Counted from the first letter of the stretch, positions 430 to 29,773 are shown. The stretch is DNA of 51,688 bases from an uncultured Candidatus Saccharibacteria bacterium (GCA_964350935.1 CAYGLL010000007.1:1-51688); one strand, 5' to 3'. The notes: generated from the letters alone by a model not told the origin. Made by a program: numbers and translations.

Positions 430-470
430 ATGATTCACAAGAACAGCCGGTGGCTGTTCTTGTGAATCAT
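430..470. other. perfect 19-bp hairpin (loop GGT)
   Basis: ATGATTCACAAGAACAGCC ggt GGCTGTTCTTGTGAATCAT, 15 nt upstream of element D. Confidence 0.8.
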
Positions 471-485
471 ATTGTGTGATCTATT

Positions 486-584
486 GGAATCGGACGGCGG
501 AGCAGTATTTTTAGCAAAAAATACTGCGAGCCGGTGCCCAGACCGAGGCGAGTGACTGGCGAGCCGAGAGTCGCGGGCGATTCC
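486..584 (+). repeat. structured intergenic element, divergent copy D
   Basis: GGAATCG GACGGCGGAGC [AGTATTTTT-AGCA-AAAAATACT] ...CGAGCCGAGAG...CGATTCC. Same P1 / GACG.. / hairpin / CGAGCCGAG / P1' order as copies A, B and E. Confidence 0.55.
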
Positions 585-634
585 CCATAGGTCCACCATT
601 TTGAAAGCGATTTTTTAAGTTCTTCCAAACCTCC

Positions 635-2575: not shown

Positions 2576-2648
2576 GGCTTAGCAACATAACTCGATTCAT
2601 CACAAAATTGTAACATTCCCCATCTTCATATATAACCCCCTTGGGTAT

Positions 2649-2713
2649 ATATGCTCCTCGGCTCGGACACAAACATAAAGACATGCTTGTGTCTCTCGCT
2701 CTACGTCGCATAT
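2649..2713 (-). repeat. structured intergenic element, copy E (65 nt, inverted orientation)
   Basis: Reverse complement reads ATATGC GACGTAGAGCGAGA GACACAA..TTGTGTC CGAGCCGAGGA GCATAT. Confidence 0.85.
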
Positions 2714-2721
2714 AAAAAACC

Positions 2722-2780
2722 CGGGAAGGACCGCTGAAGGGAAACAGCTTACAAATGCAAGCTTCCAGCGGTCCTTCCCG
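2722..2780 (-). other. perfect 15-bp stem with 29-nt loop, followed on the minus strand by GGTTTTTT and then element E
   Basis: CGGGAAGGACCGCTG ... CAGCGGTCCTTCCCG. Confidence 0.75.
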
Positions 2781-2819
2781 AGCTTCTCTCTTTACCTCAT
2801 CTTGGCTAAGATACTATGT

Positions 2820-18574: not shown

Positions 18575-18617
18575 CTCGCATTCATCCTCATAGCTTCGCT
18601 ATGAGGATGAATGCGAG
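18575..18617. other. perfect 19-bp hairpin with CTTCG loop at the 5' edge of locus C
   Basis: CTCGCATTCATCCTCATAG cttcg CTATGAGGATGAATGCGAG, 5 nt after the exonuclease stop; no T-tract. Confidence 0.8.
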
Positions 18618-18618
18618 A

Positions 18619-19000
18619 GGAACGGGAAGGGTGTCGGGGAATGAAACGCAGGTTGACTGCGTTTCATCGGGTTCGCGAAGCGAAAGTGCCGTTGCTGAGC
18701 AAAGCGAAGCAGGCACTACGCGAGGAGTTTTCACTACAGGAACTGTCCACTCATTGGGTCTTTGCTCCGCAAAGCCCTCAATGAGTCTTGCGGTGTGGGT
18801 CCCACCCCACACCTCACCCGTGGCGGAATGCAGTGAGCGACTTTACGTTCTTAGGAGCGACCTACATCTCTCCGAGTGAAACGAGATAGAGATGGGAAGT
18901 GCCTGTGGTGCGAAGCAACTTAGAAAGTAAGAAGTGCCCTTGTGGCACGAAGCGAGCGCTGAAAACCGAGGGGTTTTCAGAATAAATCCGCTCGCCTAAT
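18619..19000 (+). repeat. hairpin-dense non-coding locus C, built from modules related to the element family
   Basis: Shares AGTGAGCGAC, AGTGCCCTTGTGGCACGAA and AACCGAGGGG blocks in the same order as copy B. Contains a 35-nt tandem unit at 18896-18916 / 18931-18953 and three GCGAAGC heptamers. Confidence 0.6.
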
Positions 19001-26549: not shown

Positions 26550-26553
26550 GTTG

Positions 26554-26618
26554 ATTAGCGACGTAGAGTGAGAGAAATGAAGAATTCTTATTTTTCATTT
26601 CCGAACCGAGAAGCTAAT
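26554..26618 (+). repeat. structured intergenic element, copy A (65 nt)
   Basis: ATTAGC GACGTAGAGTGAGA GAAATGAA..TTCATTTC CGAACCGAGAA GCTAAT, 23 nt from the rpoD stop. Confidence 0.85.
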
Positions 26619-26641
26619 ATAAGGCTTAAATACCGCTTTTA

Positions 26642-27829
26642 TTAGTAGCTCTTAAGTTTTGATATTTTTTCGTGCTGGCGAATTTTTTCGTGGGCTTTTG
26701 CTTCGATCTGGCGGATACGCTCACGGGTAACGCCGAATTTCTGGCCAACCTCTTCGAGTGTGTGTGTAATACCGTCCATAAGCCCATGACGCATCTCAAG
26801 AATCCTCTGCTCTTTATCTGAAAGATCTTCAAGAATTTCACGCACCTGATCACGCAAAATACGACGTGATGCTTCCTGGTCTGGAGACAGAATCTTATCA
26901 TCAAAAAGAAAATCTCCGAGGGTTGATCGTCCATCATCACTATCATCGCCAACCGGACTCTCGAGTGATACGGTGTCCTGATCAATCTTTTCGATTTGGT
27001 AAATTTTATCGGTATCAACTCCCATTTCAATTCCAATTTCCTCCGGTAACGGGTCACGTCCCAAATCCTGCGACAGACGTCGTACTACTTGTTTATATTT
27101 AGCAATGGTCTCAACCATGTGAACCGGAACACGAATGGTGCGCGACTGATCAGCGAGAGCACGCGTGATAGCCTGGCGAATCCACCAGGTTGCGTAGGTT
27201 GAAAACTTGTAACCTTTTTTCCAGTCAAACTTATCAACCGCCTTAAAGAGACCGAGGTTTCCTTCCTGAATAAGATCGAGAAGTGTTAAATCAGGACTGC
27301 GCCCAACGTATTTTTTTGCAATCGAAACAACGAGACGTAGGTTTGCGCGAGCAAGCAAATTTTTTGCTTCGTCGTCACCTTTTTCAATCCGCTTTGCAAG
27401 TTCTTTTTCCTCAGCTGCATTGATGAGGGGGTACTGTCCAATCTCTTTCAAATACATTTGGATAGAATCGTACGAGGAATCGCTCTTTGAGTAACCATAC
27501 TGCTTTGTCTGTTTTTCTTCCTGCTGGATTTCAAGCATTCCCCCTCCCTCAAGAACGTCAATACCGGCCACGCTAAACTTTTCATACAACGTATCGAGGA
27601 ACGAAATATCATTTTCAATAGTCGGAAATTCTCGCAAAATTTCATCATACGTCACAAAGCCTCGCTCTTTACCCTTAGCAATCAAACGGTCGGCTTTGCG
27701 ATCAAAATCCTGAGCCTTTTTTGAAGCACTTTTTTGTGGAACAGCAGGCTGCTTTTTAGACACAGCCTTCTCAGGCGTTTTCTTTTTGGCGACTTTTTTA
27801 ACCGATTTTTTTGTATTTTTTTTCTTCAT
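26642..27829 (-). CDS. rpoD: RNA polymerase sigma-70 factor RpoD
   Basis: Lys-rich N-terminus; region 2 YATWWIRQAITRA; region 4.2 TLEEVGQKFGVTRERIRQIEAKA. Confidence 0.9.
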   Translation of the reverse strand: MKKKNTKKSVKKVAKKKTPEKAVSKKQPAVPQKSASKKAQDFDRKADRLIAKGKERGFVTYDEILREFPTIENDISFLDTLYEKFSVAGIDVLEGGGMLEIQQEEKQTKQYGYSKSDSSYDSIQMYLKEIGQYPLINAAEEKELAKRIEKGDDEAKNLLARANLRLVVSIAKKYVGRSPDLTLLDLIQEGNLGLFKAVDKFDWKKGYKFSTYATWWIRQAITRALADQSRTIRVPVHMVETIAKYKQVVRRLSQDLGRDPLPEEIGIEMGVDTDKIYQIEKIDQDTVSLESPVGDDSDDGRSTLGDFLFDDKILSPDQEASRRILRDQVREILEDLSDKEQRILEMRHGLMDGITHTLEEVGQKFGVTRERIRQIEAKAHEKIRQHEKISKLKSY

Positions 27830-27834
27830 AAATT

Positions 27835-27941
27835 ATTAGCGACGTAGAGTGAGCGACCTTGTTTGATTTATCAGACAAGGAGTACCCTTGTGGTATGAAA
27901 TGGGAAATTTTTATTTTTCATTTCCGAACCGAGGAGCTAAT
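27835..27941 (+). repeat. structured intergenic element, copy B (107 nt = copy A layout plus 42-nt two-hairpin insertion)
   Basis: Same ends and loops as copy A; begins 5 nt from the rpoD start codon. Confidence 0.85.
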
Positions 27942-28027
27942 ATAAGAGTTACCTTACCTGAGACTATACCGACCATACGTCATATTCCTGGAATTATACT
28001 GATCTCTATTACTAATAAATACTGCTT

Positions 28028-29773
28028 TTATTTTCGTTCCTTCAGCTGAATTTCGTTGATTTTTTTTGAAACGTCCTGCGACCTCTTCAGGAGTGACATT
28101 GCTTTTAAGTGATCGTGCTCCCGTTCGACCTTGTCTATCTCAATTATCAGTCCTGCAAGTTCTGCTTTAAGGTATTCAAGATGGATATCGTTTAATAGTC
28201 GGCTAATATCCTCAGAAATGACTTGCGATGTATCATAATACGCTTCTGCCTCAAAAATCAATCTTTGCTGAGCCTCCTCCTCAATGTTCTTTAAAAACTG
28301 ACTCCCTCGCGATCCCCCTGAAATCTGGTCCCATTCTTTAAGAACAGTATCCGGGTCTCGCGCCGGCGATTTTGTTGTTTTAAGCCATAAAATGACCCCA
28401 GTCAGGCGTTGCTCGAGAAAATCTTTTCGATCAAACGCAACACGTTCCGATCCTACTTTAACAGCGATTTCTTCGCCTCCCGATGAACCAGCTTTGGCAA
28501 GCACACTGTCACGAGATATATGAGCGAGATCCTTCCATAAGGCGTCGTCTTTAATTCGTGTCATTTTTGATATTTCACTGATGAAATGTGACTGCACGAC
28601 CGAACTTTCAATAAGTGACACCAGGGGCAACACCTCGTGTGTAACACGACGGGCCAAAACCCTGCCGTCGGTCGCTTCTTTTACTGCGCGCTCGGCGAAA
28701 AAAGTAATAACGTGATTTGATTCCTTGATTACTGCCTTAATTACCTCAAGTCCGTGGCGCGCAATATCTGCAGGATCTTGCCCGTCCGGAAAAAGTGCAA
28801 TCTTAACTTCCATGCCTTGCGCGAGGGTAAGTACCGATGCTCGATATGCCGCTTTCAAACCCGCCGCGTCACCATCATACGCAAGAATCATATTAGAAGA
28901 GAGACGGCGCACCAATTCAATCTGTTCGAACGAAAGAGCGGTTCCCGACGTTGCTACGACATTAGTAAGTCCAACCTGATGTGACATAACGAGATCCATC
29001 TGACCCTCAACCAGTATCGAGTAGCCGAATTTTCTCATGCCGTCTTTTGCCTTATCAAAACCGTAGAGTACTTTTGATTTGGTGAAGATCGGCGTCTCGG
29101 GACTATTCAAATATTTCGGTTCGTTTTCTTCCTGGTTTAAAATTCTTCCTGAGAAAGCAACAATGCGACCAGAACTATCGAAGATGGGAAACTGGATGCG
29201 CCCGCGGAAACGATCATACACTGTTTTGCCGTCATCGGATTTTTTTATGAGCCCCGCCTTCTCCATCTCCCCCTGCGTATATCCACGCGAAGAAAGGTGC
29301 GTTCCGAGTGCGCGCCACTCTTTTGGCGCAAACCCCAAACGCCATTTTTCAAATGAAGCCTGATTTAATCCGCGTTTGAGAAGATACTCGCGGGCGGCAG
29401 TTTCCGTTGTTAAGTTTGACTCGAACCATCGCGACGCCTCTTCCATGATTTCGTACAACTTGTCCTTCTCGCTCTTTAAAGTCGGGTTTTCTTTTACAAT
29501 CTCAACACCCGCACGCGCAGCCAGAGTTTTGAGTGCGCCCAGAAAATCAGTTCCCTCAAACTGCTCAACGAAAGTGAACATGTCCCCTTTCATGCCGCAT
29601 CCAAAACAATAGAACGTGCCCCGGTTGGGTGACACGAAAAAGGATGGCGTCTTTTCGTGATGAAAAGGACACCGTGCCTTGTAACTCGAACCGGCTTTCT
29701 CAAGCTTGATTGAACCTCCGATCACGTCAACGATCGAAAGCCGGTCTTTAATTTGTTCTACAGTTGAAGACAT
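28028..29773 (-). CDS. dnaG: DNA primase DnaG
   Basis: CHC2 zinc finger CPFHHEKTPSFFVSPNRGTFYCFGCG; TOPRIM EGQMDL...YDGDAAG. Confidence 0.9.
   Translation of the reverse strand: MSSTVEQIKDRLSIVDVIGGSIKLEKAGSSYKARCPFHHEKTPSFFVSPNRGTFYCFGCGMKGDMFTFVEQFEGTDFLGALKTLAARAGVEIVKENPTLKSEKDKLYEIMEEASRWFESNLTTETAAREYLLKRGLNQASFEKWRLGFAPKEWRALGTHLSSRGYTQGEMEKAGLIKKSDDGKTVYDRFRGRIQFPIFDSSGRIVAFSGRILNQEENEPKYLNSPETPIFTKSKVLYGFDKAKDGMRKFGYSILVEGQMDLVMSHQVGLTNVVATSGTALSFEQIELVRRLSSNMILAYDGDAAGLKAAYRASVLTLAQGMEVKIALFPDGQDPADIARHGLEVIKAVIKESNHVITFFAERAVKEATDGRVLARRVTHEVLPLVSLIESSVVQSHFISEISKMTRIKDDALWKDLAHISRDSVLAKAGSSGGEEIAVKVGSERVAFDRKDFLEQRLTGVILWLKTTKSPARDPDTVLKEWDQISGGSRGSQFLKNIEEEAQQRLIFEAEAYYDTSQVISEDISRLLNDIHLEYLKAELAGLIIEIDKVEREHDHLKAMSLLKRSQDVSKKINEIQLKERK

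Follow-up and report, generated by a model that had tools for sequence, protein, structure and literature searches.

In the window analysed here, by which we mean the whole 51,688-nt stretch of DNA, the minus strand at 2649-2713 can be folded into two helices separated by a purine-rich loop, which raises the question of whether this segment is a functional RNA or a dispersed mobile element. A sequence-only reading had described it as an inverted third copy (E) of a 65-nt layout, had taken a strong hairpin followed by this layout as the repeat unit, and had pointed to a GTAG next to a hairpin as the sign of a REP/BIME-like element recognised by RAYT-type transposases. The window itself is of the Paceibacteria chromosome type: it holds dnaG, rpoD, rpoB/C-sized ORFs and ribosomal genes, and the relatives of its RpoD carry Paceibacterota labels.

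Copies of the element in the window

The rod of copy E, read on the minus strand from 2713 to 2649, is ATATGC-GACGTAGAGCGAGA-(GACACAAGCATG-TCTT-TATGTTTGTGTC)-CGAGCCGAGGA-GCATAT, with the P2 hairpin in parentheses. It follows the architecture P1-GACGTAGAGYGAGN-P2-CGARCCGAGRA-P1', which is also found at 26554-26618 (copy A) and 27835-27941 (copy B). Copies E and A share an identical 6+14+28+11+6 layout and differ at 3 of the 25 loop positions, the other 22 being the same, while P1 and P2 are wholly different in sequence with complementarity kept. A covariance model (R1), built from 79 relatives and run on the 51.7-kb window with filters off, matched copies E (82 bits), A (81 bits) and B (23 bits) and nothing else. 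The third copy is thus confirmed both by its sequence and by its R1 score. The layout previously given for copy A also stands, but its numbering had to be moved one base to the left.

The copy E rod has a folding energy of -27.5 kcal/mol (z = -5.7), and the opposite strand folds more weakly (-17 kcal/mol, z = -2.8). Contrary to the sequence-only reading, these 65 nt are only the left half of the element, whose second hairpin (P3) runs to about 2630. The full span of copy E is 2711-2630 on the minus strand plus the target TTTAT, with a 2-nt ambiguity at the 3' end (2630 or 2632), and the last two bases of this target (A and T) form the two outer pairs of P1. A tRNA-like reading of GGTTCAATACC was rejected, because GGTTC and a distal GGAACC form P3; the window contains no tRNAs. 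Rfam 15 gave no match anywhere in the window at the gathering threshold, and at E ≤ 10 the region 2560-2830 yielded generic hairpin (miRNA-type) matches to the flanking hairpin only.

Without its target, copy A occupies 26556-26642 and lies between the rpoD stop codon (26642-26644, minus strand) and the rpoD terminator hairpin, antisense to rpoD. Copy B, at 27837-28031 without its target, is degenerate: it scores only 23 bits because a 42-nt insertion at about 27855-27896 interrupts its rod, and its right half (P3) carries a second insertion of about 72 nt. The 42-nt insertion is hairpin-forming (GACCTTGTTTGATTTATCAGACAAGGAGTACCCTTGTGGTAT), and a similar one is present in another genome at a different position of the element (L039, about 72-113), both directly after ...GAG. 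It may be a second, still smaller mobile hairpin that targets the first element. The GC skew of window 1-51688 is negative throughout and most genes lie on the minus strand, so the window is probably part of a single replichore. Of the three copies, E alone lies on the G-rich strand, while A and B lie on the C-rich one.

Table 1. Positions of the element copies, their parts and tandem arrays (window coordinates, except for the three array loci, which keep their own numbering; the slash marks a junction).
Feature	Position	Strand	Basis
Copy E, target pentamer TTTAT	2712-2716	-	directly 5' of the element; family-wide flank composition
Copy E, rod	2649-2713	-	sequence and pattern matches; fold z = -5.7; covariance model R1 82.3 bits, E = 4.7e-27; covariation
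Copy E, P1 5' strand	2713-2708	-	
Copy E, 5' loop strand GACGTAGAGCGAGA	2707-2694	-	
Copy E, P2 hairpin	2693-2666	-	
Copy E, 3' loop strand CGAGCCGAGGA	2665-2655	-	
Copy E, P1'	2654-2649	-	
Copy E, right half: short P3 hairpin ATACCC-AAG-GGGGTTATAT, terminal TATAT	2630-2648	-	family comparison after P1' and folds
Flanking terminator-like hairpin, 15-bp perfect core, and T6 (outside the element)	2717-2785	-	
Copy A	26551-26642	+	covariance model 80.8 bits; fold; comparison with L120 and L121
Copy A, target TTGAT	26551-26555	+	
Copy A, rod	26554-26618	+	
Copy A, P3 ATAAGGC..GCTTTTAT	26619-26642	+	
Copy B, degenerate	27832-28031	+	covariance model 22.8 bits (split match); gap of about 195 nt in the alignment with three relatives
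Copy B, target ATTAT	27832-27836	+	
Copy B, rod	27835-27941	+	
Copy B, right half, ending GCTTTTAT	27942-28031	+	
Tandem array, L172	1450-1700		joined exactly at ...TATAT/TAGC
Tandem array, L197	1-420		joined exactly at ...TATAT/TAGC
Tandem array, L180	1500-1834		joined exactly at ...TATAT/TAGC

A dispersed family with a covarying fold

One-genome-per-species contigs were scanned with the pattern GACGTAGAGNGAGN{15,45}CGANCCGAG, which gave at least 119 stretches. About 110 of these are from low-GC Patescibacteria MAGs and have a proper P1 and P2, and about nine of the stretches listed are high-GC chance matches without stems. The hosts include Parcubacteria/Paceibacteria such as Kaiser-, Yonath-, Vogel-, Zambryski- and Campbellbacteria, and further Doudna-, Komeili- and Buchananbacteria. 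An independent metagenome scan, anchored on the 3' half alone (CGAGCCGAGGAGCTAATATA), gave at least 120 loci. Combined, both scans comprise at least 205 distinct copies, nearly all in Patescibacteria MAGs. The 52-kb window holds 3 copies, and the sequence flanking copies in other genomes, about 0.8 Mb in all, holds about 10 extra ones, suggesting tens of copies per genome as a rough estimate. No copy was found in plasmids and phages; the one viral match falls within coding sequence on a contig of 67% GC and was discarded as a chance one. The motif strings occur in no paper of the literature searched, and a literature search on REP/RAYT, IS200/IS605 MITEs and structured repeats in CPR likewise returned nothing. 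TIGR-Tas arrays were considered and set aside, being tandem guide arrays beside a Tas gene, unlike the dispersed units here. The family is undescribed: neither Rfam 15 nor the plasmids, phages and papers searched contain a match.

The 25-nt loop is conserved over several candidate phyla. Among the matches listed for the 3'-anchored scan, the 5' loop strand is exact in 63 of 105 copies and has one mismatch in 25, ten of these being a C to T change that gives U·G; four or more mismatches or a shortened strand were seen in 9 of the 105. The core is therefore very strongly conserved, yet decaying copies exist. In the alignment of 79 sequences, the proposed structure is 91.8% paired, compared with 75% in shuffles and 32-49% with slid partners, and P2 alone is 97.3% paired. 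Double-change cells number 277, versus 69 ± 6 in shuffles. Both helices are thus real, as had been proposed from the compensatory changes between copies A and E. Furthermore, RNAalifold independently finds P2 and three pairs within the 'internal loop'. One loop-internal pair covaries (CG 64, UA 9, UG 5), and the divergent copy L081 has a G-C to A-U swap at another loop pair. This allows the loop to be read as an almost uninterrupted helix, in which C-G/G-C pairs are parted by GA/AG blocks and a GUA/GA block; in three dimensions, these would correspond to tandem sheared G·A pairs and a bulged-G module. In P2, the GACGTAG strand has 50 G·U against 10 A·C, and this excess indicates that the GACGTAG strand is the one that folds.

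The whole element is non-coding and about 85-200 nt long. On the folding strand (the GACGTAGAG strand) it forms two adjacent hairpins, the left rod and the right P3. The rod consists of P1 (ATTAGC with GCTAAT, or similar), the purine-rich quasi-continuous 'internal loop' and P2, and GTAG is situated at loop positions 4-7, between P1 and P2. The 5' strand of P3 varies (ATAnAGG.., AAACCG.., ATTGTA.. and others), and its 3' strand is the end of the element (TTTAY, TATAY or CATAT). In the P3 loop, 0, 1 or 2 'AATACC + GC-hairpin' modules are present, plus other hairpins, and this variation leads to the range of total lengths. Calling the 3' ends by ungapped complementarity was unreliable in AT-rich DNA, and 42 ends were curated by hand. 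The unit starts at P1 and contains neither a promoter nor a terminator of its own. Its 5' end (TAGCGACG...) shows no complementarity to its 3' end (...GGNNCCTTTAT), so that terminal inverted repeats are lacking.

Two further features of the hairpins were observed. In L061, L069, L109 and L001, GC-rich hairpins (CCTGCC...GGCAGG and others) follow CCGAG of the 3' loop strand, and this shared point marks either a hot spot for insertions or a place where expansion is tolerated. The heptamer GCGAAGC, a classic and unusually stable DNA mini-hairpin, occurs within the elements (L001-L119 and the window) 13 times on the top strand and twice on the bottom strand, 5.6 times the background, and is frequent as AGCGAAGCGAA within P2 or P3 loops.

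Insertion polymorphism, target and genomic setting

The REP/BIME-like mobile element that had been offered as the alternative to a functional RNA pointed in the right direction, since orthologous sites differ between close relatives, being empty or holding a sense or an antisense copy. Presence/absence polymorphism was found both between dnaG and rpoD and behind rpoD. The three closest relatives, with RpoD identities of 94, 88 and 85%, all lack copy B. Their dnaG-rpoD gap is 3-18 nt, compared with 198 nt in the window, of which about 195 nt are copy B, and deleting copy B gives back ...CGA AAA TAA TTT ATG..., as in the relatives. Behind rpoD, the window and the relatives L120 and L121 have the RpoD C-terminus KLKSY-stop in common; the site is empty in L121, whereas L120 carries a sense copy and the window the antisense copy A. 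These two copies are independent insertions. The L120 copy starts within the rpoD stop codon (AGT TAT/TAG CGACG...). In the window, copy B parts the dnaG stop from the rpoD start codon, between which there are 3 nt in the closest relative, L120. The rpoD ATG is now 7 nt from the left end of copy B, the reverse complement of which reads GCTAATAATTT-ATG, and rpoD expression must pass through, or begin within, antisense copy B.

Across the at least 205 distinct copies, the 5' flank at positions -4 to -1 is T (93%), T (94%), A (97%) and Y (99%), the last being T in 89% and C in 10%, and T-richness is back to background by about -9. In L120 the flank bases are the rpoD codons AGT TAT, and the flank variants (TTTAT, ATTAT, CTTAT, GTTAT, TTGAT, ..TAC) are more variable than the element's own 3' end. 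Therefore, the flank bases come from the target. Identity from junction to junction is 35% at +2 and 13% at +3, and because matching stops there, no target duplication is present. The 5' Y equals the terminal Y in 40 of the 42 curated copies (33 T/T, 7 C/C); both are able to pair with the same R in P1', and only one position varies. A longer target duplication, or guide pairing through P1, was considered in view of 5-7 nt of identity in the window copies and L120, and was rejected, as family-wide the identity ends after TAY(+T).

Tandem arrays of two to three head-to-tail units with different P2 stems, joined ...CTATAT/TAGCGACG..., were found in L172, L197, L180, L073, L070 and L029. Such arrays would be expected if insertion works well behind the TAY with which an element ends. 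Where one genome holds identical copies, their flanks are unrelated. The usual landing site is T-rich intergenic DNA, including U-tracts of terminators, the ends of genes and the TAY at which a resident copy stops, and for copy E the source of the TTTAT target is the T-tract of the hairpin at 2717-2785. An exact search in metagenomes for the predicted empty site of copy E (...GGGTTTTTTAT/ATGAAGATGG) gave no match.

The hairpins noted upstream of the copies do exist, with T6 following the hairpin before copy E and TTTT the one before copy A, but the idea that hairpin and element together are the repeat unit has to be given up. Directly upstream, 26% of copies have a terminator-like hairpin, compared with 15% of TTTAY sites chosen at random (odds ratio 1.9, p = 0.007). 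Since only 26% of copies have one, and identical copies have unrelated flanks, the hairpin is host flank and not part of the unit. No further copy of the 2717-2785 hairpin was found in 124 loci, and the long hairpins at 430-470, 18575-18617 and 2717-2785 have no sequence in common. 'Copy D' (about 476-600) and 'locus C' (18575-18900), previously listed as members, gave no match to R1 even with filters off and none to Rfam apart from generic hairpins at permissive thresholds, and are not counted here. 'Copy D' (window 430-600, plus strand) has two parts, a hairpin at 430-470 with 19 perfect base pairs and a 3-nt loop, and a separate multi-branch structured region at 476-600 (-54.6 kcal/mol, z = -4.9), which has only short strings in common with the element (GACGG.GGAGC, CGAGCCGAGAG) and may be another structured repeat or RNA. 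'Locus C' (plus strand) has a perfect 20-bp hairpin with a 3-nt loop, followed by a GC-rich region with GCGAAGC-type strings, whose fold shows no significant gain over shuffles (z = -1.6).

Orientation relative to the flanking genes is mixed (++ 22, -- 17, +- 17 and -+ 11), and in a larger set the flanking genes are co-oriented in 175 cases and opposed in 124. In 105 copies the top strand coincides with the G-rich strand, against 58 in which it does not (p = 3e-4), a bias that is confounded with gene co-orientation; where skew and gene strand disagree, the counts are 20 versus 15. The 203 flanking ORFs fall into 184 clusters, none of them transposase-like, and the genes between neighbouring copies are ordinary ones (glycosyltransferase, GAPDH, peptidoglycan hydrolase and others). 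Within 2.5 kb of about 230 copies, the commonest families are EF-G, M23 peptidase, tRNA synthetase, thioredoxin reductase and RpoD, all of housekeeping type and in varying positions and orientations. The PMT protein beside copy E has no homologue above 35% identity. A leader or riboswitch of the PMT or M23 genes was rejected because of the mixed orientation and the unrelated neighbours. More generally, mixed orientation and the lack of a conserved partner gene argue against the functional RNA acting in cis on neighbouring genes that had been considered earlier.

Proposed mechanism, alternatives and related systems

Taken as a whole, the element is probably a non-autonomous, site-specific, single-strand-folding mobile element of Patescibacteria (CPR) that is moved in trans. 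In the proposed mechanism, a trans-acting enzyme encoded elsewhere would recognise the conserved loop and cut 3' of TAY at both junctions, after which a further (T)TTAY would receive the element on its 3' side, leaving neither a duplicated target nor inverted ends. Both junction TAYs would pair with the same central strand, P1', as an internal guide, and the circle junction predicted for copy E is ...TATAT/ATGCGACG. The folded molecule would be DNA, and the enzyme would most likely be an HUH/Y1-type single-strand DNA transposase, as in IS200/IS605 and REP-RAYT. We favour such an enzyme because the element folds on one strand, has two end hairpins and a fixed short target word, and shows neither duplication nor inverted repeats, and also because the cut-site base seems to covary with an internal base in a multi-copy, non-coding unit. 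This combination of features is the logic of HUH/Y1 single-strand transposons (IS200/IS605) and of REP-RAYT. The G-rich-strand bias and the GCGAAGC enrichment are weak hints of folding at the DNA level.

Several observations have to be set against this enzyme type. No transposase or recombinase is present in the window, and no neighbour family recurs near the approximately 230 copies. A phmmer search with a provisional IS200 TnpA query sequence detected no homologue in about 4,000 ORF segments near copies, and no parent element with an ORF between rod and P3 was seen in the family comparison. The HUH model is also disfavoured by cut sites that abut or lie inside stems, unlike IS608, where they are 10-19 nt from the hairpins. 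Moreover, most hairpins bound by transposases require less than a conserved loop of 25 nt, which would suit an RNA-protein interaction as well, and the G·U excess fits RNA as well as single-stranded DNA. There is a slim chance that the purine-rich rod is itself an active guide-like or catalytic RNA or DNA that directs self-insertion via TAY pairing, or else the recognition module of a novel CPR-wide enzyme class. If the rod were active or the enzyme class new, the element would represent a new minimal class of mobile elements, long kept in the smallest bacterial genomes.

In a less likely explanation, the element would work mainly as a structured RNA, for example as a decoy or scaffold that binds protein, as a signal for processing or stability, or in a guide-like role, and its dispersal would be secondary. 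The putative tandem sheared G·A and bulged-G GUA/GA module of its purine-rich loop could bind a conserved CPR protein. The strong covariation with its G·U excess, the loop conservation across candidate phyla, the hairpin expansions at fixed positions, as in many structured RNAs, and the many copies within transcription units (e.g. between the rpoD stop and terminator or between dnaG and rpoD) would all agree with this. However, orientation to transcription is mixed, with sense and antisense copies at one site; the unit begins at P1 and brings neither promoter nor terminator; and neither genomic position nor partner gene is conserved. Single copies decay or are interrupted and thus are not individually maintained, Rfam offers no match, and the three-dimensional motif is a putative one. 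A further alternative is the notion of conserved leader or terminator DNA of adjacent genes, or of an assembly artefact. Copies do often abut start or stop codons and terminators, but presence/absence and inversion at orthologous sites contradict this notion, the roughly 200 flanking ORFs are mostly unrelated, and the element occurs in hundreds of independent assemblies; we consider it barely credible.

A true REP/REPIN system, with a single-copy, vertically inherited RAYT (a domesticated Y1 transposase) recognising GTAG beside a hairpin, would account for extragenic, multi-copy units that fold on one strand and contain an invariant GTAG. It would also be in line with long persistence across a superphylum, as has been reported for REPIN-RAYT systems. 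The specific link to RAYTs drawn from GTAG is not supported, however, given that this motif is inside the internal loop instead of 5' of a palindrome, that multiple copies are tandem-direct or kilobases apart, with no inverted doublets (REPINs) seen, and that there is no recurrent flanking gene and no IS200-like match near the approximately 230 copies. RAYT genes are typically flanked by REPs, and the search for a RAYT/TnpA-like gene found none in the window and none among the ORFs near those copies. The literature searched likewise contained nothing on RAYTs in Patescibacteria, and we regard such a system as improbable. Slightly more doubtful still is a site-specific mode in which a tyrosine recombinase of the integron-attC or Xer type, or some other recombinase, would act on the folded hairpins and excise the element as a circle, with the TTAY sites in P1 and P3 serving as cores. 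Its sequence outcome would be identical to that of the HUH model, and TAY direct repeats at both ends, each within a stem, as well as arrays of different units with the same junction are compatible with it. Nevertheless, RYYYAAC/GTTRRRY core sites are absent, no integrase or cassette ORFs are nearby, and the conserved loop sequence is unlike attC, in which structure is conserved and sequence is not.

CPR/Patescibacteria genomes are about 1 Mb in size, tightly packed and thought to be repeat-poor. Here, several candidate phyla with such streamlined genomes have retained a mobile element that is site-specific and under structural constraint, and it inserts even into 3-nt spacers of essential operons (dnaG-rpoD). 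With the covariance model, intergenic regions of CPR genomes can be annotated or masked, and the element itself is a ready marker for strain-level insertion polymorphism. It also points to a trans-acting enzyme, either an HUH transposase or a new one, with an unusually well-defined recognition site made up of the 25 conserved loop bases and the TTAY cut site. Once this enzyme is found, the mechanism would be directly testable in vitro with short oligonucleotides.

A comparison with the PATEs, non-autonomous derivatives of IS200/IS605 that TnpA (Y1, HUH) moves by 'peel-and-paste' single-strand transposition, shows the same lack of terminal inverted repeats and target duplication, the same insertion 3' of a fixed tetra- or pentanucleotide, here (T)TTAY, and likewise end hairpins on a single folding strand. 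IS608 targets TTAC and ISDra2 targets TTGAT, the latter being the word that precedes copy A of the window. Two further parallels may exist: a cut-site base that covaries with an internal base (40 of 42 here, with one variable position and a geometry unlike IS608), and an orientation bias towards the G-rich strand, here confounded with gene orientation. In contrast to IS200/IS605, no TnpA, TnpB or ORF-bearing parent was found, the two hairpins are dissimilar, and the cut sites lie in or next to stems and share one central strand. The 25-nt conserved internal loop and the use of the element's own 3' end as a target, giving tandem arrays, are further differences. Classical MITEs (Correia, RUP, ERIC) are also small, non-coding and dispersed, with single-strand structure and insertion polymorphism. 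They have terminal inverted repeats and target duplications (for example TA), and both features were tested and are missing here. Integron attC sites differ by their R''/R' core (RYYYAAC / GTTRRRY), which the present element lacks, and its neighbours are housekeeping genes.

The element resembles the pneumococcal BOX (boxA-boxB(n)-boxC) and the enterobacterial BIMEs in being a mosaic without an encoded protein. The mosaic consists of a constant left module, variable inner hairpins (AATACC + GC hairpin, or GAGCGAAGCGAA hairpins) and a constant closing end. It differs from them in its host group and in its defined insertion site and polymorphism, and we know of no sequence relation between them. 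With REP/REPIN-RAYT it shares short, extragenic, multi-copy GTAG hairpins, often at gene ends near terminators, as well as lineage persistence and the movement in trans that we propose. It departs from them in its loop-internal GTAG, the lack of inverted doublets, the precise TTAY target, a roughly estimated tens instead of hundreds of copies per genome, and the lack of any RAYT seen beside the copies. The enzyme features that define the REP and PATE families were not found in the sampled sequence, and the element is best filed as REP/PATE-like, not as a member of either.
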